Positions 2,661 through 22,100 of a stretch of 60,348 bases of DNA are shown one piece after another (positions within the stretch are counted from its first letter, which is position 1; every line of letters starts with the position of its first letter). Both the position numbers and the translations under genes were made by a program. Under the pieces are notes generated by a model. The model was not told where the DNA came from. It did not search any database and worked only from the letters and a program-made list of their open reading frames with translations. The stretch covers positions 1-60,348 of the IMG/VR virus record IMGVR_UViG_3300037755_000377; one strand, 5' to 3'. Source of the stretch: a virus. Its lineage: Duplodnaviria > Caudoviricetes.

Positions 2661-2908
2661 TCTTCCGCTTCCTTGATTGCGGCGTCGATCATATGGCTAT
2701 ATACTTCTTCATATCGAAGGTTTGATCGGATCAGACGCCACGCCTCATTGATCATTTCGTCGTTTGGCTCCACCATCACCTTCAATACTGCGATGGCCTT
2801 GCGTATTGATGATGTGCGGCGGTTTTTGTATGCGAGGGTGTCGCCAGCACCAAGCGCGACCCACGCTTGCGGCTCAAGTATGTGCGCTATGCGTTCGACC
2901 ATCGTCAT
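2657..2908 (-). CDS. hypothetical protein
   Basis: Operon packing; AIAVLKVMVEPNDEMI...YSHMIDAAI pattern common in phage early small proteins. Confidence 0.6.
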   Translation of the reverse strand: MTMVERIAHILEPQAWVALGAGDTLAYKNRRTSSIRKAIAVLKVMVEPNDEMINEAWRLIRSNLRYEEVYSHMIDAAIKEAEE

Positions 2909-2911
2909 GTT

Positions 2912-3433
2912 TCATCCCACCACGCTCGGCTGTATTTGCCAGGCCTTGTAATCTGATAAGAGACGGCGCCAATCGTTGTTGGTGTGTGTCAGTTCTGATC
3001 TCGACCTCACACCGCATAGTTGGCAGACAACGCCGGCGGCGACGTGCTTGTCTGGCGTTTCTTCGGAATCGCCACCGCGCCAAAGATCGTCGTAGCTCTC
3101 AATCAGGAACGCCTGAAACTGCGGTAGTGTGCAGAGATACCCCGCCACTTGTGCGGCCGATTTCCTTGGCGCCCCCTGCGGCTCGGAAGCTACAGGGGGC
3201 GGGGTTGTAACATCACGGGTCTGTCCTTTGGTATTGGCACCACCCCCTTCCTGTTCCAATCGAGCAATGGCTACCCAACATTCACTTGCTGGATTTGGCA
3301 TCCCGCCAAGAACCTCCAAAGCCTGATTGGCTTGCTCCAGAGGAATCTCGAATATGAGTTGGATGCACATGCGCGTCTTAATCAGCTTAAAATCGCTGTA
3401 GCTTGCAGTGAGTGCCGCCCGGTTGTCGGTCAT
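2912..3433 (-). CDS. hypothetical phage protein (recombination module)
   Basis: 173 aa ORF directly after the SSB-like gene; CGVRSRSEL motif. Confidence 0.65.
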   Translation of the reverse strand: MTDNRAALTASYSDFKLIKTRMCIQLIFEIPLEQANQALEVLGGMPNPASECWVAIARLEQEGGGANTKGQTRDVTTPPPVASEPQGAPRKSAAQVAGYLCTLPQFQAFLIESYDDLWRGGDSEETPDKHVAAGVVCQLCGVRSRSELTHTNNDWRRLLSDYKAWQIQPSVVG

Positions 3434-3440
3434 AGATCAC

Positions 3441-3836
3441 CTAAAAAGGCACTTCGTCCGACATGTCATCACGTTGCTGCGCATGGACTTGCTGCGCAGG
3501 AACCTGTGGCGGCGGCGGTGCCTGATACGACACGCGGGCTGCCGTCTTAACCCGGATGGCGTCAACAGACCGGCCCTGAAAATCAACGATGGTCGGGTAG
3601 AGGATGATTTCTCTACCAATCCAATTGTCTGTTTCTTCGCCATAGGCGTGGCTTATGTTGTTCGCGTTGGTACGGTTGCAAACTAGACCGCGCTCTTTCC
3701 CACGAAAGTATATGACGGGCTTTTGGTCGCCGCCGATGTCTTCCAGCACAACCTTATCGATGATGACGGTTACATTTCTGTCCTGCAAATCCGCAGCTTT
3801 CAGATAAGCCGATGGGTACGCCGCCGATATTCTCAT
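3441..3836 (-). CDS. putative single-stranded DNA-binding protein
   Basis: YLKAADL N-terminus, Pro/Gln linker, acidic tail DDMSDEVPF typical of SSBs. Confidence 0.65.
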   Translation of the reverse strand: MRISAAYPSAYLKAADLQDRNVTVIIDKVVLEDIGGDQKPVIYFRGKERGLVCNRTNANNISHAYGEETDNWIGREIILYPTIVDFQGRSVDAIRVKTAARVSYQAPPPPQVPAQQVHAQQRDDMSDEVPF

Positions 3837-14182: not shown

Positions 14183-14258
14183 GCCGCTGTAGCTCAATGG
14201 CAGAGCAGCCGCCCTGTAAGCGGCAGGTTGGCGGTTCGAGCCCGGCCCAGCGGCTCCA
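14183..14258 (+). tRNA. tRNA-Thr(UGU), atypical
   Basis: GCCGCTG/CAGCGGC acceptor, GCTC/GAGC D-arm, GCCGC-CCTGTAA-GCGGC anticodon arm, TTCGAGC T-loop, encoded CCA; C at position 33 and a bulged G in the T-stem. Confidence 0.85.
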
Positions 14259-16898: not shown

Positions 16899-17098
16899 CG
16901 GCTTGCCCCGGTTCGATGTTGCCAAGCCATTCCGCGATCTCGGCAAGATTCTCAGGGTCGCCTAAGAGCTTTTCGATTTCTTGGATGGTTTTGGGCTGTT
17001 TCACCGGGAAAACGTACCAATTCTGGGCGATTTCGTCATTATAGCGCAAGGTGTGCTAGCTACATAATACCGGATGAAAACGAGGTTTGTTTTTTGAA

Positions 17099-17638
17099 AT
17101 GCCAGCCGGTCGACCTTCAAAATATGACCCTACATTTGCCGTCGAGGCCGAAAAGCTATGCAAGCTCGGGGCAACCGATGCTGAAATAGTTGATTTCTTT
17201 GATTTAAAACCAAGCCATGACGAATGGCTCGCGGCCTGCCTGATGCTAATCCGGCAGGATCGGCTTGGGTTTTTGCAGGCCAGAAAAAAGGCACGGTCAA
17301 AACAGCGTAAGAGATGGTTCGCGAGAAACCCATCAATGCGCGTCAGAAATAGCATTTCGTCGCGGATGTGGGCAGCAATAAAGGGCAGCACAGATGGTCG
17401 GCTATTTTCTCGGCTCGGGTACTCCGCCGATCAATTGACGGACCACCTTGAGTGGCTGTTCGCGCCTGGGATGTCGTGGGAGAACTACGGCAAATGGCAT
17501 ATCGACCACATAAAGCCGTGTGCGGCCTTTGATCTGACCGACCAAGTGCAGTTTAGCGAGTGTTGGGCTCTGGAGAATTTACAGCCTCTGTGGGCCGGTG
17601 AAAATTGCAGGAAGGGCGCACGGTATGGCGCGGCCTGA
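17099..17638 (+). CDS. HNH endonuclease fused to a TerS-like N-terminus
   Basis: MPAGRPSKY...LCKLGATDAEIVDFF then GMSWENYGKWHIDHIKP...LENLQPLWAGENCRKG. Confidence 0.8.
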   Translation: MPAGRPSKYDPTFAVEAEKLCKLGATDAEIVDFFDLKPSHDEWLAACLMLIRQDRLGFLQARKKARSKQRKRWFARNPSMRVRNSISSRMWAAIKGSTDGRLFSRLGYSADQLTDHLEWLFAPGMSWENYGKWHIDHIKPCAAFDLTDQVQFSECWALENLQPLWAGENCRKGARYGAA

Positions 17639-18107
17639 AAAGTGGAAGGATGAATATATTCGCATTGCGGAGCACGCTTGTGAACTCGGTGCCACTGACG
17701 TTGATTTGGCTGGCATGCTCGATGTTTCCATCCGTACTATTTACCTTTGGCGAGCGACTAAGCCTGAATTTGCTGTGGCCCTAAAGGTAGGAAAATCAGA
17801 AGCTGATGAACGTGTTGAGCGCAGCCTCTATAATCGGGCCATTGGCTATACCTTCAATTCCGAGAAGGTTTTCCAGTTCCAGGGCCAGATCGTTCGCACA
17901 CCAACGATTGAGCATGTGCCGCCCGACACGGTGGCCATGATCTTTTGGCTCAAAAACCGCAGGCCTGAACAATGGCGAGAAAAGAATGAAACCGTCATCA
18001 CTCACCGCAGGGCCAATGAACTGACAGACGATGAACTTGCAGATATCGCCTCAAGAAGCAGCGACCGCGCTTCTGCAAAGGCGAACGATCCGTCAAAGCT
18101 ACACTGA
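17625..18107 (+). CDS. terS: terminase small subunit
   Basis: LGATDVDLA...TIYLW...PEF...KVGK...VERSLYNRAIGY...PPDTVAMIFWLKNRRPEQWR. Confidence 0.9.
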   Translation: MARPEKWKDEYIRIAEHACELGATDVDLAGMLDVSIRTIYLWRATKPEFAVALKVGKSEADERVERSLYNRAIGYTFNSEKVFQFQGQIVRTPTIEHVPPDTVAMIFWLKNRRPEQWREKNETVITHRRANELTDDELADIASRSSDRASAKANDPSKLH

Positions 18108-20337
18108 ATGGTGTCTTTATCGCGGCTTTGTTCCAGCACCACATCATCAGCTTATCATCGACAATATAGAGGAATTTCTAGACAGCGAGGATGATGTCCT
18201 GTTGCTGTTTGCGCCGCCTGGCAGTGCCAAGTCGACATATCTGAGCGTCCTGTTTCCGCCCTGGTATCTGGCCCGGTATCCCGGCCACGACATCCTAGCG
18301 GCCACCCATAGCGTGGAGTTTGCCGAGCGATGGGGCCGGCGCATCCGCAATGACATTGCCGAGCACTCGCATGTGCTTGGGATTGAACTGTCGGGGGACA
18401 ATAAGGCCGCAGCCCGCTGGGGCCTGACATCTGGGGCTGAATACTACGGGGTTGGTGCCGGAACCGGCATTTCCGGATTTCGTGCTGATTTGGGCCTGGG
18501 AGATGACTTTTTCGGCAACCGCGAGGACGCCTATTCCGAGACGGTCAGGGCCAAGCGGTGGGATTGGTATATTGATGACTTCTCGGCTCGGTTGAAGCCG
18601 GGGGCCAAGCGCATTCTGATTAATTGTCTTGCCGGTGATACTTTGATTGCCATGGCAGATGGTGCGCAAAAGCGATTTGATGAGGTAGTGCCTGGCGATC
18701 TCGTTCGGTCGTGGGATGGCCGGAAAACTGTGAGTGCAGAGGTCTCCGCAGTTGTAGACAATGGTATTGATCAAACCTATTTGATAAGAACGAATAGAGC
18801 GGCAGTCAGAGCGAATGCTAGGCACCCGTTTCTCATTCTAACGAATAAGGGTCTGCGATGGACGGCGACCAAAAACTTGCGGAATGGAATGCGTATCGTC
18901 GTGCACCGAACGGCTCGAATGCAGGAAAGACCTGTTCAGTCAGTGGCTGCGACGAACCTGCTAAATGCCGGGGCATGTGCTCGCGTCACTACAATAAGGC
19001 AATGTGGGCGTCTGGTCATCGCTCACCTTCTGTGGCAAGCGCACATCGCCTTTCAACGCGCCGCAGATGGCGCTATGGAATTGATCAGGCCGAGTTCGAT
19101 CAAATGTTGGCCGAGCAGAATGGCCTTTGTGCCATTTGCGGCACCGATGGCAGTGATGGCCGGCCCAGGCATTGGGTTACCAATCTCGTCCCAGATCATA
19201 ACCACGAGACGGGAGTGCTTCGCGGCTTGCTCTGCAATGACTGCAACCGGATTGCCGGACGAACCAGAGATACCACAATTCTGGAACGTGCCATCGAATA
19301 CGTCAGAACCAGATACTGACACGATTGTTGCAGTCGATCCTTACGGTCTTGAGCCTGTCTATGATCTTACCATCGAGGGCACACACAATTTTGTCGCCAA
19401 CGGTATGTGGACCCATAATACCCGTTGGCACGAAGAAGACGTCGCTGGCAGAATTCTGGAGCAGATTGACAAGGGTATTGTTAGCGGCCGGGTGATCTCG
19501 ATTCCGGCTGTTGCAGAGGAAAATGATGCGCTGGGCCGGAAGCCTGGCGAGTACCTCTGGGATAATCCGGACGGCTACAATTACGGGTCGTTTCTGAGAG
19601 CTCGGCAGCGCGAAACATCCCCGATGATGTGGTCCGCGCTGTACCAACAGCGGCCGGCGCCGGAAGAGGGAGATTATTTCAAGGCTGAATGGCTGCGGTC
19701 GTATGACAAAGCACCAGCCAAGGATATGTTGAAGGTCTACGGTGCGTCGGACTATGCCGTTACTGCGGACGGTGGCGACTACACAGTTCATGTTGTTGTT
19801 GGTGTTGATTCTGAACAGCGGATGTACTTGCTTGACGTGTGGCGCAAGCAGGCGGCATCCGATGAATGGGTAGAATCGTTTTGCGACTTGGTGCTTGAGT
19901 GGAGGCCGATGGAATGGGCCGAGGAACAGGGCCAGATCAAGTCCGGTGTCGGACCTTTCCTTGCAAAGCGCCAGCAGGAACGCAAGGCGTATGTCTATCG
20001 CCGGCAGTATCCGACTCGTGGGGACAAGGCGGTTAGGGCTCAATCGATCCGTGGCCGAATGGCGATGAATGGATTATATTGCCCCTCTTCCGCCCAGTGG
20101 GTAGCGCAAGTGCGGTCAGAGCTGTTAAGCTTTCCGGCTGGGAAATACGATGATATTTGTGATGCGATGGGCCTCATAGGCCAGTTGCTTGATCATATTC
20201 AAGGTGTTGGCAAGAAAGAACCAAAGCCAATTTCCCCTCACGTCTTTGCGGTTGCTGAGGACGGGCGCATGAAGTCCAACCTGAGCGTTCAGGAACTGAT
20301 CGAGCGGCAGCGCAAGCGGAGACAAGTGGATGATTAG
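18031..20337 (+). CDS. terL: terminase large subunit containing an intein
   Basis: Walker A APPGSAKST, Walker B LGLGDD, ILIN|TRWHEED split by intein, ALYQQRP, nuclease SDYA and FPAGKYDDICDA. Confidence 0.95.
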   Translation: MNLQISPQEAATALLQRRTIRQSYTEWCLYRGFVPAPHHQLIIDNIEEFLDSEDDVLLLFAPPGSAKSTYLSVLFPPWYLARYPGHDILAATHSVEFAERWGRRIRNDIAEHSHVLGIELSGDNKAAARWGLTSGAEYYGVGAGTGISGFRADLGLGDDFFGNREDAYSETVRAKRWDWYIDDFSARLKPGAKRILINCLAGDTLIAMADGAQKRFDEVVPGDLVRSWDGRKTVSAEVSAVVDNGIDQTYLIRTNRAAVRANARHPFLILTNKGLRWTATKNLRNGMRIVVHRTARMQERPVQSVAATNLLNAGACARVTTIRQCGRLVIAHLLWQAHIAFQRAADGAMELIRPSSIKCWPSRMAFVPFAAPMAVMAGPGIGLPISSQIITTRRECFAACSAMTATGLPDEPEIPQFWNVPSNTSEPDTDTIVAVDPYGLEPVYDLTIEGTHNFVANGMWTHNTRWHEEDVAGRILEQIDKGIVSGRVISIPAVAEENDALGRKPGEYLWDNPDGYNYGSFLRARQRETSPMMWSALYQQRPAPEEGDYFKAEWLRSYDKAPAKDMLKVYGASDYAVTADGGDYTVHVVVGVDSEQRMYLLDVWRKQAASDEWVESFCDLVLEWRPMEWAEEQGQIKSGVGPFLAKRQQERKAYVYRRQYPTRGDKAVRAQSIRGRMAMNGLYCPSSAQWVAQVRSELLSFPAGKYDDICDAMGLIGQLLDHIQGVGKKEPKPISPHVFAVAEDGRMKSNLSVQELIERQRKRRQVDD
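18625..19419 (+). mobile_element. intein (265 aa) in TerL
   Basis: Block A CLAGDTLI, block B ANARHPFL, block F VYDLTIEGTHNFVANG, block G THN followed by +1 Thr. Confidence 0.92.
18858..19319 (+). CDS. endonuclease VII-family homing endonuclease nested out of frame inside the intein
   Basis: YGI...QNGLCAICG...VPDHNHETGVLRGLLCNDCNR; N-terminal CSVSGC...RGMCSRHY; own RBS TAAGG; +2 frame relative to terL. Confidence 0.88.
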   Translation: MDGDQKLAEWNAYRRAPNGSNAGKTCSVSGCDEPAKCRGMCSRHYNKAMWASGHRSPSVASAHRLSTRRRWRYGIDQAEFDQMLAEQNGLCAICGTDGSDGRPRHWVTNLVPDHNHETGVLRGLLCNDCNRIAGRTRDTTILERAIEYVRTRY

Positions 20338-20577: not shown

Positions 20578-20600
20578 AGGCGCCCGATAGGGTGGAATTC

Positions 20601-20719
20601 GTGGCGTAGATAGCGGTTACTTCCTTCAGATGGATGAGGTCGTAGGTTCAAGTCCTACCGGGGCGTAAGCTCTGTAGCTCAGTTGGTAGAGCGCATTGTG
20701 TCCGCAATCGCCTGTTCCC
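20601..20719 (+). ncRNA. yrlA: YrlA-like Y RNA with circularly permuted tRNA-mimic domain
   Basis: Variable loop AGGTC, T-arm GTAGG-TTCAAGT-CCTAC, acceptor stem CGGGGC-GTAA-GCTCTG closed by a tetraloop, then D-arm GCTC-AGTTGGTA-GAGC; upstream of Ro60. Confidence 0.85.
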
Positions 20720-20768
20720 GGATTCCGCCCTATCGGGTGTCGCCACGGGCTTTCAATGGAGAAAGCCC

Positions 20769-22100
20769 ATGCGCTTGAATGTCAAGTCTGTTGCCCCTCA
20801 CGGATATACCCATGAGGGAGCACCTGCGGCACCGATCAACGCTGAGCAGGCGTTGCGCCGTTCGGTTATGTCATGCCTGCTTTGGGAATCGGAATTCTAT
20901 GAGGATGGCGAGGATATCGCCGCCCGCATTGTCAGGCTCGCCGGCACGCTTCCGGCTTCCAAGGTTTCCGCACTCGCAATCGAGGCGCGTGAGCGCGGCA
21001 ATCTACGTCATGTTCCGCTCTTGCTTTTGTCCGCGCTCGCCAAAATCGGCAAGGGCGACAAGATCGTCGCGGATACGATTGAGCGCGTTATCCAGCGCGC
21101 GGATGAACTTTCTGAATTGCTGGCGGTTCACGCCAAGGCAAACGGCGTCAAGCCTGGCGAGGTTAAAAAGAAGATTCCGGCTCAGATGAAAAAGGGCCTT
21201 GCTCGCGCGTTCACCAAGTTCAATGAATACGCACTCGGCAAATATGATCGGGACGGCGCTGTGCGGCTTCGCGATGTGCTGTTCATGGTGCACGCCAAGC
21301 CGAAGGATCACGAACAGGCGGCGCTCTGGAAGCGATTGGTGGCCAACGAATTGACCGTGCCCGATACGTGGGAGGTCCAGATTTCCGGCGGCGCCGACAA
21401 GAAGGAAACTTTCGAGCGGCTGATCCGCGAAGGCAAGCTCGGCTATCTCGCGTTGCTGCGCAATCTGCGCAACATGGCGGAAGCCGGGTGTGATCCTGAC
21501 CTTGTGAAATTGGCTATCGTCGCCCGCAAGGGCGGTGCGCAACGGGTGTTGCCGTTCCGCTACATCGCGGCGGCCCGCGCTGCACCGCAGTTTGAGCCCG
21601 CCATTGATCAGGCATTGTGCGAAGCCATCGGCGAACTGCCTATCTTGCCGGGCAAGACTGCGATCCTGATCGATGTGTCTGGATCAATGGATGAACGGCT
21701 GTCCGCCAAGTCGGACATGAAACGAATCGACGCGGCGGCTGGCCTTGGCGCTATCTGGCCTGGCGATGTGCGTATGTTCACGTTCTCGCAGAAGGTTGTG
21801 GAAGTTCCTCCCCGTCGCGGCATGGCAGGCGTTGATGCCATCGCACGTTTCCAGCCGCACGGCGGAACCTATCTTGGACAGGCGGTGCAAGCGTTAAACG
21901 CCCAAGTGCCGTACGATCGCCTTATCGTGATCACCGATGAGCAGTCGCATGACCGCGTGGCAGACCCGCTGCATGGCCGCGCTTACATGATAAACGTCGC
22001 GAGCGCACAGCGCGGTGTTGGCTACGGAAAATGGAACCATATCGACGGTTTCTCGGAAGGCATTCTGCGATTCATACATGAGTTTGAGAATGACCGCTGA
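20769..22100 (+). CDS. rsr: Ro60/Rsr TROVE-domain RNA-binding protein with vWA domain
   Basis: THEGAPA start, ALLRNLRNM, RVLPFRY, MIDAS DVSGSM, GGT, ITDEQ, IDGFSE. Confidence 0.93.
   Translation: MRLNVKSVAPHGYTHEGAPAAPINAEQALRRSVMSCLLWESEFYEDGEDIAARIVRLAGTLPASKVSALAIEARERGNLRHVPLLLLSALAKIGKGDKIVADTIERVIQRADELSELLAVHAKANGVKPGEVKKKIPAQMKKGLARAFTKFNEYALGKYDRDGAVRLRDVLFMVHAKPKDHEQAALWKRLVANELTVPDTWEVQISGGADKKETFERLIREGKLGYLALLRNLRNMAEAGCDPDLVKLAIVARKGGAQRVLPFRYIAAARAAPQFEPAIDQALCEAIGELPILPGKTAILIDVSGSMDERLSAKSDMKRIDAAAGLGAIWPGDVRMFTFSQKVVEVPPRRGMAGVDAIARFQPHGGTYLGQAVQALNAQVPYDRLIVITDEQSHDRVADPLHGRAYMINVASAQRGVGYGKWNHIDGFSEGILRFIHEFENDR

Follow-up and report, generated by a model that had tools for sequence, protein, structure and literature searches.

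The large terminase subunit gene (terL) studied here is interrupted by an intein, and inside the intein, in a second reading frame, lies a complete gene for an endonuclease VII-type nuclease. We consider it quite probable that the two together are a mobile parasite of a conserved terL site that consists of two genes, a splicing intein and a homing nuclease made separately and out of frame. The DNA belongs to a sediment-metagenome virus of the Caudoviricetes (IMG/VR record IMGVR_UViG_3300037755_000377), and the window is the whole stretch of 60,348 nucleotides that was analysed. How would such an arrangement work? Ribosomes would read terL straight through and give a single 768-residue precursor, in which intein residues 1-96 and 227-265 would fold as a HINT domain, while the roughly 130 residues between these splicing parts would be a meaningless, disordered read-through of the nuclease gene (the shadow). 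Class-1 protein splicing, using Cys1, the block-B His, His-Asn and Thr+1, would then excise the intein with its shadow and leave ...ILIN-TRWHEED... TerL. The 153-residue nuclease would be translated separately from its own Shine-Dalgarno-like site and the ATG at 18858. In mixed infections or phage-prophage encounters it would cut terL alleles that have no intein, and repair of the cut copies would bring in the intein plus the nuclease gene, which is homing.

The interrupted terL gene and its two predicted products

The features of the locus are as follows.

18031..20337, + strand: terL precursor ORF made up of N-extein, intein and C-extein, 768 codons and a stop, open throughout
18031..18624, + strand: TerL N-extein, last residues ...AKRILIN (from the ORF reading and relatives without intein)
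18625..19419, + strand: intein, 265 codons, Cys1 ... His-Asn, then Thr+1 (Pfam Intein_splicing, boundary residues)
18625..18912, + strand: N-terminal splicing subdomain, intein residues 1-96 (predicted fold, mini-intein alignment, pN/pS)
18846..18848, + strand: TAA, last stop of the nuclease frame, three codons before the nested ATG; the nuclease frame is open from 18849
18847..18851, + strand: Shine-Dalgarno-like AAGGG, 6 nt before the nested ATG, weak in the window (sequence, motifs in relatives)
18858..19319, + strand: nested endonuclease VII-type gene (HNH, beta-beta-alpha-metal), 153 codons and a TGA stop, in terL's +2 (= -1) frame (PF02945, PHROG)
18913..19302, + strand: shadow segment, intein residues 97-226, the nuclease gene as read in the terL frame (stop-free, not conserved as protein)
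19303..19419, + strand: C-terminal splicing subdomain, intein residues 227-265, blocks F and G, ...THNFVANGMWTHN (predicted fold, mini-intein alignment, pN/pS)
19420..20337, + strand: TerL C-extein, first residues TRWHEEDV (from the ORF reading and relatives without intein)

The host gene is recognised from several sides. Its N-extein matches Pfam Terminase_6N with 24.2 bits (cut-off 22), the ORF shares 67% nucleotide identity over 328 nt with genes of Brucella phages labelled 'putative terminase large subunit', and JGI gives its relatives the name phage terminase large subunit-like. A second endonuclease VII/HNH-like ORF adjoins terS at 17087-17638. Relatives without the intein read ...ILMN|TRWHEED without interruption, and all 8 of them have ...[NHQ]TRWH... 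at this place, while in the window CLAGDT...THN sits directly between ILIN and TRWHEED. The Cys1 codon (18625-18627) follows ILIN at once and the C-terminal end reads ...WTHN|TRWHEED, that is His-Asn then Thr+1; Ser-Asn replaces His-Asn in 3 of 12 close relatives. The Intein_splicing profile (PF14890) matches with 41.3 bits against a cut-off of 35.8 (E 1.8e-10). In an alignment of 71 intein sequences C1, the block-B H67, D247 and N265 are invariant, and so are N64, R66, H67, P68 and F69 of block B, which reads NARHPF. The element has the marks of a class-1 intein, and from TerL's essential role and the intact blocks we infer that it splices.

The predicted structure of the intein follows the same division. 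The N-terminal splicing subdomain is modelled as beta strands with block-mean pLDDT of 91-97 over residues 1-90, and the C-terminal one has block-mean pLDDT of 94-97 from residue 231. Between them the shadow has pLDDT below 50 at residues 97-213 and 222-226; no secondary structure is modelled up to residue 217, and a single 4-residue helix at 218-221 is all that the segment contains. Searches of Pfam and PHROG with the terL-frame reading of 18913-19302 gave zero family matches. Mini-intein relatives at the same site align only to the two splicing parts (residues 1 to about 92, plus the C part) and have no shadow. Canonical bifunctional inteins, which carry an in-frame nuclease of the LAGLIDADG or HNH type, have the same splicing blocks and likewise take their insert between blocks B and F, but they hold the nuclease in the intein polypeptide, which the window does not. 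The canonical bifunctional form was rejected for this intein, since what its terL frame encodes matches no family and is predicted to be disordered, and the nuclease lies outside the intein polypeptide.

The nested ORF begins 827 nt after the terL start (18858 minus 18031), which is 2 modulo 3. It matches Pfam Endonuclease_7 (PF02945) with E 1.4e-19 and 70.2 bits (cut-off 23.6) over profile positions 2-81 of 82, and the PHROG family 'endonuclease VII' with E 1.4e-25; a profile of the nuclease family matches T4 endonuclease VII (1e7d) with E 1.5e-8. Among 70 nuclease sequences C91, C94, D113, H114, C126, C129 and N130 are invariant and H116 is nearly so. These eight residues align with C23, C26, D40, H41, H43, C58, C61 and N62 of the T4 enzyme, which we take to be its zinc-binding Cys and catalytic Asp, His and Asn. 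The window ORF is full length and carries every residue that is invariant in the family. Its model (pLDDT 81.8) has strands at 110-114 and 121-126 and a helix at 127-135. Foldseek places this model near T4 endonuclease VII with a probability of 0.99, but the likeness is modest (E 0.03-0.06, TM 0.34), and its best match, Hpy99I, has E 3.9e-3, the E-values being weak overall.

T4 endonuclease VII (gp49; PDB 1e7d and 1en7) is a free-standing structure-specific resolvase. The window nuclease resembles it in that the zinc-binding Cys4 and the D-H-x-H...N core align, and in being a dimer, in the window a predicted one; it differs by an extra N-terminal Cys/His module (C26, C31, C41, H44) and by a weak fold match outside the core. 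The homodimer prediction scored 0.52 against 0.00 for the best control, at a mark that 20 of 30 proteins with structures solved as pairs reach, against 1 of 23 solved as single chains, and the runs had at least 93% of contacts in common, with a partner pLDDT of at least 68. The nested nuclease thus probably acts as a homodimer like the T4 enzyme, though the prediction may reflect likeness only, because a similar dimer, T4 endonuclease VII, has already been solved.

Most of this anatomy had been proposed from the letters alone. The original prediction placed a canonical intein at ILIN|TRWHEED of TerL, a complete +2 endonuclease VII-type ORF with TAAGG-N7-ATG in front of it, and no recognisable domain in the terL frame between the splicing parts, and each of these was found where it had been put. 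Its view that standard annotation would miss the nested gene also agrees with the two carrier phage records that were checked, neither of which annotates one. Its overall reading, a mini-intein-type splicing domain with a separate +2 endonuclease VII-type gene whose shadow would be removed by splicing, is supported by the sequence comparisons given here.

Frame relation, selection and the start of the nested gene

Is the out-of-frame layout a property of the element or an accident of one contig? Among close relatives the nuclease ORF lies one frame behind a long open terL frame in 11 of 11, with nucleases 66-75% identical to that of the window, and among further loci the same layout is found in 87 of 92, and in all 87 the intein occupies the TerL site that it has in the window. 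When the distinct related loci were sorted by a single uniform classifier, 135 of 138 had the canonical frame relation at that site, and in 0 of the 138 was the nuclease in frame on both sides. The related loci share descent, so that these counts are not of independent events, and the 138 were chosen as carrying intein plus nuclease, so that by construction they are silent on the nuclease occurring apart from the intein. A profile of the splicing part alone retrieved 276 cluster representatives at E <= 1e-30 and was far more informative than a word-based protein search with the intein N part, which gave 8 matches, all of 711-796 aa. The carrier contigs are filed under many bacterial phyla.

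The original prediction expected purifying selection in the +2 frame and stop avoidance alone in the terL frame, and this is what the comparisons gave. The mean pairwise difference at terL codon positions 1, 2 and 3 is.29,.20 and.53 in the intein N part and.28,.25 and.60 in the C part, while in the overlap it is.18,.46 and.24. Over 55 pairs, the nuclease frame of the overlap has a pN/pS of 0.28 and the terL frame one of 1.19; outside the overlap the terL frame has 0.35 in the N part and 0.33 in the C part. For the N part, variation and pN/pS were measured on alignment columns 1-231/233. Read in its own frame, the nuclease varies by.32,.31 and.61 at its codon positions (70 sequences). These data show that selection in the overlap acts on the nuclease frame and that the terL frame is only kept free of stops.

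The stops themselves tell the same about the open frame. Over the 153 codons of the window, the terL frame has 0 stops and the third frame 6, and in 12 of 12 loci the terL frame has 0 where the third frame has 5-13. Given the amino-acid sequence, stop avoidance per locus is not extreme: in synonymous shuffles the probability of 0 stops was 0.018-0.60 per locus, and 0.42 in the window. Free-standing-type endonuclease VII relatives served as a control, which was built from IMG/VR since a PF02945 search of 401 genomes gave too few strong free-standing genes. Of these relatives, 65 of 68 have stops in the corresponding frame, on average 4.7 per 100 codons, and the 3 stop-free members are nested in ORFs of 596-763 codons. 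That the terL frame stays open across the nested gene, as had been claimed, is therefore a feature that such genes seldom have when free-standing.

Where would translation of the nuclease start? In the window TAAGG (18846-18850) is followed by seven nucleotides and the ATG, and the TAA of this TAAGG is the last stop of the nuclease frame. By a loose criterion, a purine-rich motif of the GGAG, GAGG or AAGG type stands at the matching place in 65 of 85 distinct relatives and is missing in 20. In 85 of 85 distinct loci a candidate start codon precedes the first Cys of the zinc motif, at a similar distance in most of them (24-28 codons; long forms 58-64). In 12 close loci the start falls in one alignment column, with ATG in 9 and GTG in 3, the residue there being always Met or Val, although this conservation is partly forced by the terL frame, because the purines of ATG/GTG are third positions of Arg, Lys, Gln or Glu codons before a conserved intein Trp. 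Of 85 loci, 46 have a nuclease-frame stop at most 6 codons upstream of the start, and in 7 the stop immediately precedes it.

Distribution, decay and the rival explanations

The intein is patchily distributed. It is found in 0 of the 8 closest TerL relatives, which are 62-77% identical and likewise have no nested gene. The relatives that do bear it have exteins 33-63%, splicing parts 57-66% and nucleases 66-75% identical to those of the window. Judged by these identities, a patchy intein whose closest relatives sit in distant TerL hosts fits homing; the higher identity of the intein than of the exteins could partly come from different constraints instead of transfer. Decayed forms exist as well. 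The 130 parsed relatives include 7 mini-inteins and 5 intermediates in which the nuclease region is deleted, and one carrier (L039) has a broken nuclease with the terL frame intact. As for the direction of origin, the nuclease may have colonised a mini-intein, as the original prediction proposed, or mini-inteins may have arisen through deletion.

Could the layout be an artefact, an ordinary in-frame intein seen through a pair of indel errors that compensate each other, or through two recent frameshifts, with the terL frame open by luck? One contig alone would be insufficient to exclude indels, and in two loci, L035 and L116, the N part of the intein and the nuclease do share a frame. But the frame relation recurs in 135 of the 138 distinct loci, which come from many samples and genomes, with none in frame on both sides; contigs from other sequencing runs match 18400-19271, 19248-19398 and 19114-19373 with 0 differences and 0 gaps and so cover 18400-19398; and the indels among the 12 close inteins are of 3 and 6 nt only. 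L035 and L116 both have extra stops or frameshifts, the layout of L116 recurs only in L232 and L295 (100% identical sequence, neighbouring sample number), and with L116 as query all 60 other distinct complete relatives are canonical, so that these two loci are tentatively treated as decay or assembly error. We regard an artefact as hardly conceivable, and the claim that the nuclease is truly out of frame stands. A related possibility is that the nuclease is reached by programmed -1 ribosomal frameshifting, giving a fusion of TerL-N, intein-N and nuclease. The +2 frame is indeed the -1 frame, and a canonical X_XXY_YYZ heptamer of some kind occurs within the permitted stretch of 19 of 85 relatives. 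However, such a heptamer is missing in the window and in the 66 other relatives, and where present it varies in place and sequence; the stops close to the conserved start, in some loci immediately before it, and the constant Met or Val at the start position of the 12 close relatives also speak against a fusion, which we consider very improbable.

Two other explanations concern what the nested protein does. It might be a packaging helper, either a resolvase of branched DNA such as T4 endonuclease VII or an HNH protein that partners the terminase, as HK97-like phages have, with the intein merely housing its gene. The T4 enzyme frees DNA of branches so that it can be packaged, and HNH proteins are helpers of some terminases; the location of the gene inside terL and the T4 resolvase as the nearest solved relative would suit such a role. 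Yet the 8 closest TerL relatives do without both intein and nested gene, so the protein is dispensable for that terminase type, and a separate endonuclease VII/HNH-like ORF already stands beside terS. Moreover, the gene keeps the same frame and place within the intein among the 138 intein-plus-nuclease loci, with TerLs down to 33% identical, and the broken nuclease of L039 together with the mini and intermediate inteins is the decay pattern of a selfish nuclease. This role seems unlikely. We give about the same small weight to a relic, in which the intein is fixed in this phage, the nested gene is out of use, and its intactness reflects recent descent. Homing elements decay after fixation and the intein family does contain decayed forms; but the window ORF is full length with every family-invariant residue, the low pN/pS of the nuclease frame holds across lineages that include the window, and the intein-less alleles of close TerL relatives in metagenomes mean that targets are available. 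The two-gene homing parasite is the reading that we go on with.

Known systems and the meaning of the layout

Several known systems share parts of this design. A 2025 survey restricted to the actinobacteriophages of PhagesDB gives the first account of a TerL intein with an ORF that resembles endonuclease VII and lies out of frame. There, as in the window, the ORF is described in 'reading frame 3' of the intein's endonuclease region and the terL-frame read-through has no recognisable fold; the survey grades its evidence for mobility as 'ambiguous', and the words metagenome and Proteobacteria are missing from its text. The window nuclease is 44-50% identical, over 82-92% of its length, to ORFs that lie inside the terL genes of Gordonia phages (Nordenberg, Vivi2, Angelicage, Affeca, Sedona, Keitabear) and Mycobacterium phages (Phlyer, Pipefish, Athena). 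In Nordenberg and Phlyer the nested ORF has the same +2 offset as in the window, and the same TerL site was checked in two IMG/VR contigs (L048 and L107) whose lengths and match coordinates equal those of two Gordonia phage records. Unlike these actinophage examples, the window comes from a sediment metagenome and its TerL is nearest to that of Brucella phages. It is an added case of a layout known since 2025, in a non-actinobacterial setting, and the family is much larger than reported.

Out-of-frame endonucleases are also known in other hosts. In a cyanobacterial dnaX intein a LAGLIDADG endonuclease lies in the +2 overlapping frame (Phillips, DeSimone and Gogarten, bioRxiv 10.64898/2026.09.14.751524); the endonuclease frame has a low dN/dS and the extein frame a raised one, and there are mini-intein relatives, all as here, but the nuclease type, the host gene and the location on a cellular chromosome differ from the window. 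The ShiLan element is a hidden out-of-frame HNH endonuclease within the DNA methylase of a phage (Arsenault, Gosselin and Gogarten, Genes 2025, PMC11855218). It resembles the window in having an out-of-frame HNH gene in a stop-free host ORF, its GTG start being just inside the insert, but it has no splicing domain, so that the read-through stays in the host protein, whereas the window has a complete intein to remove it. In the fractured genes, split inteins are reported to have a free-standing endonuclease gene between their two parts (Dassa et al., Nucleic Acids Res 2009, PMC2677866). Here too a free-standing-type endonuclease gene occupies the endonuclease insertion point of an intein, but the host gene is in two ORFs and trans-spliced, while the window has one continuous terL ORF of 768 codons.

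Then why should the nuclease lie out of frame at all? We tentatively suggest, at somewhat less than an even expectation, that the out-of-frame layout is old and stable, and perhaps even obligatory, in a very large family of TerL inteins in phages of many phyla, and that its cause is mechanical. The homodimer interface, formed by the catalytic core and the C-terminal helix, would prevent the nuclease from working as a loop tethered at both ends, so that only separately translated copies would be active, and the intein would tolerate the gene as a disordered, stop-free linker.

A splicing domain and a homing nuclease that coexist as two separately translated genes would be a lasting form of the 'splicing first, nuclease invades later' origin of inteins. 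Gene callers retain the long terL ORF and discard the nested one, and a nuclease gene predicted to be active is thus hidden in many phage and prophage records. The published basis is a few dozen actinobacteriophages; the family reached from the window is far larger and includes decayed and mini forms, and its size provides material for the life cycle of the element and for DNA shaped by one coding frame and one merely open frame. Cultivable carriers, the phages of Gordonia and Mycobacterium smegmatis, put the predictions within experimental reach.

The terL intein and its nested nuclease gene

Does the terL gene carry an intein with a second gene inside it? The original prediction was of a splicing intein whose endonuclease VII-type gene is translated separately from the +2 frame. 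The reading frames and the intein were found as described, with profile matches for each part:

18031-20337, + strand: large terminase (TerL) ORF of 768 codons, N-extein matching Pfam Terminase_6N
18625-19419, + strand: intein, first residue Cys, last residues His-Asn followed by Thr; Pfam Intein_splicing above threshold
18858-19319, + strand, +2 frame: nested nuclease ORF of 153 residues; Pfam Endonuclease_7 (E 1.4e-19), PHROG endonuclease VII (E 1.4e-25)

The 265 added codons (18625-19419) separate ILIN from TRWHEED; intein-less relatives have an unbroken ILMN-TRWHEED. The predicted TAAGG-N7-ATG is present at the start of the nested ORF, and after its TAA the nuclease frame has no further stop ahead of the ATG. 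The terL-frame reading of the nuclease DNA matched no family among the Pfam and PHROG profiles. The DNA nearest to the 60-kb viral window comes from sediment metagenomes, and part of terL is 67% identical in DNA to the Brucella phage terminase.

In an AlphaFold2 model of the intein (71-row alignment), residues 1-90 and 231-265 form beta strands with block-mean pLDDT of 91-97, and residues 97-213 have pLDDT below 50 and no secondary structure. The nuclease model (70 rows) has a beta-beta-alpha core and a mean pLDDT of 81.8. A profile of the nuclease family finds T4 endonuclease VII at E 1.5e-8, and the alignment brings together the zinc cysteines and the Asp/His/Asn core, which are invariant across the family. 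Foldseek matches of the model were weaker (Hpy99I, E 3.9e-3; T4 endonuclease VII, E 0.03-0.06, TM 0.34). The nuclease is predicted to be a homodimer, with a score of 0.52 versus 0.00 for the best control, at least 93% of contacts in common between runs and partner pLDDT of at least 68. In the benchmark, 20 of 30 solved pairs and 1 of 23 solved single chains reach the mark, counts that hold only roughly because our own alignment was used; the pass itself may just show likeness, because a similar dimer is already solved.

Other features were noticed in the window:

14183-14258, + strand: tRNA-Thr (tgt) gene
17087-17638, + strand: second nuclease-type ORF, just upstream of terS and overlapping it
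17598-18107: small terminase gene (terS); PHROG terminase small subunit, E 9e-47
20613-20724, + strand: YrlA-type Y RNA-like element, ahead of the next gene
20769-22100, + strand: Ro60/Rsr-like gene directly downstream of terL; Pfam TROVE (E 1.1e-10) and vWA

The second nuclease-type ORF matches PHROG 'endonuclease VII' over residues 35-180 (E 5e-13). Ahead of this, residues 1-40 and the N terminus of terS align with one and the same stretch of the small-terminase profile; a Pfam search with the ORF gave no match. The ORF may be a free-standing nuclease gene with a duplicated 5' terS piece, or an HNH packaging partner. The Y RNA-like element scores 47.2 bits with Rfam RF02553 (E 1.5e-9), short of the gathering score of 69, and ARAGORN calls a portion 'tRNA-Ser(aga)' (20580-20667). 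Together with the Ro60/Rsr-like gene it makes up a phage-borne Rsr/Y RNA module.

Frame relation, selection and initiation

Might the out-of-frame layout be a sequencing error? Nucleases 66-75% identical to that of the window are encoded on eleven IMG/VR contigs, and on every one of them terL reads as a long open frame with the nuclease ORF one frame behind it, and the third frame is closed. An alignment of the 12 inteins has only two indels, of 3 and 6 nt. Nuclease-profile scans gave 92 more loci (21 from genomes, 71 from viral contigs), 87 of them with the same frame relation, and in all 87 the intein occupies the same TerL site (...M/Q-CMTGDT...FIANGLVSHN-TRWHEDD, hyphens at the intein boundaries). 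A uniform motif classifier applied to all fetched sequence (310 sources) yielded 138 distinct intein-plus-nuclease loci: 135 canonical, one with a broken nuclease and two aberrant. In none of the 138 is the nuclease in frame with terL both before and after it. Logan contigs from other runs match 18400-19271, 19248-19398 and 19114-19373 without difference or gap, at low depth and possibly from a single campaign. With 135 of 138 loci canonical and these contigs gap-free, sequencing error is rejected.

Which frame is then under selection? In the splicing parts flanking the overlap (the DNA read in both frames), the third terL codon position varies most (.53 and.60); within the overlap the maximum (.46) falls on the second, which corresponds to the third position of the nuclease codons. 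Over 70 family members, nuclease codon positions 1, 2 and 3 vary.32,.31 and.61. For 55 pairs from 11 sequences (L011, a near-duplicate of L012, omitted), the N and C parts give pN/pS values of 0.35 and 0.33 in the terL frame; for the overlap core the figures are 1.19 when read in that frame and 0.28 in the nuclease frame. The position of the variation peak and this pN/pS contrast thus show that the overlap encodes the nuclease. Staying open is the sole constraint on the terL frame there. Across all 12 nested ORFs the terL frame is free of stops, against 5-13 per ORF in the third frame. The chance of zero stops is 0.018-0.60 per locus under synonymous shuffling (0.42 in the window) and 0.004-0.47 under back-translation with extein codon usage; such modest values imply that much of the adaptation already lies in the amino-acid sequence. 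The corresponding frame contains stops in 65 of 68 distinct relatives of a free-standing endonuclease VII gene (mean over the 68, 4.7 per 100 codons; 3.9 at 45-55% G+C), and the other three are themselves nested inside ORFs of 596-763 codons.

How is the nested gene expressed? Among 12 close relatives the start is ATG in nine and GTG in three, in a single alignment column, with GGAGG, GAAGG or GAGGG-type motifs 6-9 nt upstream. This conservation is partly imposed by a conserved intein Trp codon of the other frame. All 85 distinct family members have a start candidate, whose spacing from the first zinc-motif cysteine downstream is similar in most, and 65 have an SD-like motif by a loose criterion; a nuclease-frame stop lies within 6 codons upstream in 46 and immediately before the start in seven. 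Programmed -1 frameshifting would instead call for slippery heptamers. Only 19 of the 85 have a canonical one, its place differing among them, and none was found in the permitted stretch of the window, so frameshifting is disfavoured. Given the start candidates, SD-like motifs, upstream stops and scarce heptamers, separate initiation is the best reading, and on sequence comparison the predicted splicing intein with its own +2-frame nuclease is supported. Three loci with the GTG start (L017, L018, L020) also have a C-terminal Ser-Asn replacing His-Asn in the intein.

Probable mobility and reduced forms

The intein is absent from all eight closest TerL relatives (62-77% identical). Intein-bearing contigs compare with the window at 33-63% identity in the exteins, 57-66% in the splicing parts and 66-75% in the nuclease. 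At four related loci (L014, L015, L019, L020), judged by identity, the intein resembles that of the window far more closely than does the essential enzyme around it, a pattern that vertical descent would hardly explain.

Cluster representatives matching the N-terminal splicing-part profile number 8247 at E <= 1e-3, 1058 at E <= 1e-10 and 276 at E <= 1e-30. Among the best 150, a TerL-site intein could be parsed in 130, with a length of 251-280 aa in 109, a greater length in nine, 153-250 aa in five and 135-152 aa in seven. The seven shortest, mini-inteins at the same TerL site (P0010, P0014, P0027, P0055, P0073, P0074, P0083), align only with window intein residues ~1-92 and 225-265; intermediates of 168-205 aa are P0015, P0019, P0087, P0130 and P0141. 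In several TerL proteins of 950-1450 aa the intein sits far downstream and the profile matches a second stretch as well, which makes two inteins per protein probable. A subgroup with inteins of 297-305 aa (L040-L044, L066, L079, L094, L095, L109, L117, L118) has a nested nuclease with an additional N-terminal Cys-rich module, starting 58-64 codons ahead of the common zinc motif.

The broken nuclease (L039:2795-3289) has a stop within the nested ORF and a terL frame still open, and is thus a decaying nuclease within an intact intein. In the aberrant loci (L035:~2700-3500; L116, the same as L231:~1900-2800), the intein N part is in the nuclease frame and the C part one frame ahead, with additional stops or frameshifts close by. 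The L116 state recurs solely in 100%-identical contigs (L232, L295), and its other distinct complete relatives are canonical (60 of 60). Decay or assembly error may lie behind these two loci, or they may be of a split or fused type. A homing cycle predicts the existence of broken, partly deleted and mini forms such as those seen here, which do not decide whether the family arose by invasion of a mini-intein.

Relation to known systems

Is this architecture new? A 2025 preprint surveying PhagesDB actinobacteriophages describes an endonuclease VII-like ORF in frame 3 of a terL intein, previously unreported by its authors' statement, and names Affeca, Keitabear, Sedona and 'Angelicase' as carriers. 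By tblastn the window nuclease is 44-50% identical to sequence inside terL of the Gordonia phages named there, and likewise of Nordenberg-like and Phlyer/Pipefish-like phages; its frame offset equals that of the actinophage examples. Two further reports describe a dnaX intein with an out-of-frame LAGLIDADG gene and the same dN/dS contrast between frames as in the window (Phillips et al., bioRxiv 2026), and an out-of-frame HNH gene with no splicing domain at all (Arsenault et al., Genes 2025). All three come from one laboratory. These reports make the kind a known, recently described one, to which the window adds a new, homologous member.

Hundreds of viral contigs match, with at least 548 confirmed stretches. 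Carrier contigs are filed under Anaerolineae, Sulfuritalea, Oribacterium, Dysosmobacter, Clostridiaceae, Oleiphilaceae, Opitutaceae, Bradyrhizobium, Geobacteraceae, Saccharimonadales, Caulobacteraceae and others, by bin assignments that can be wrong for phage contigs. The advance over the preprint, which may list further carriers, is one of setting and scale: the carriers extend beyond actinobacteriophages.
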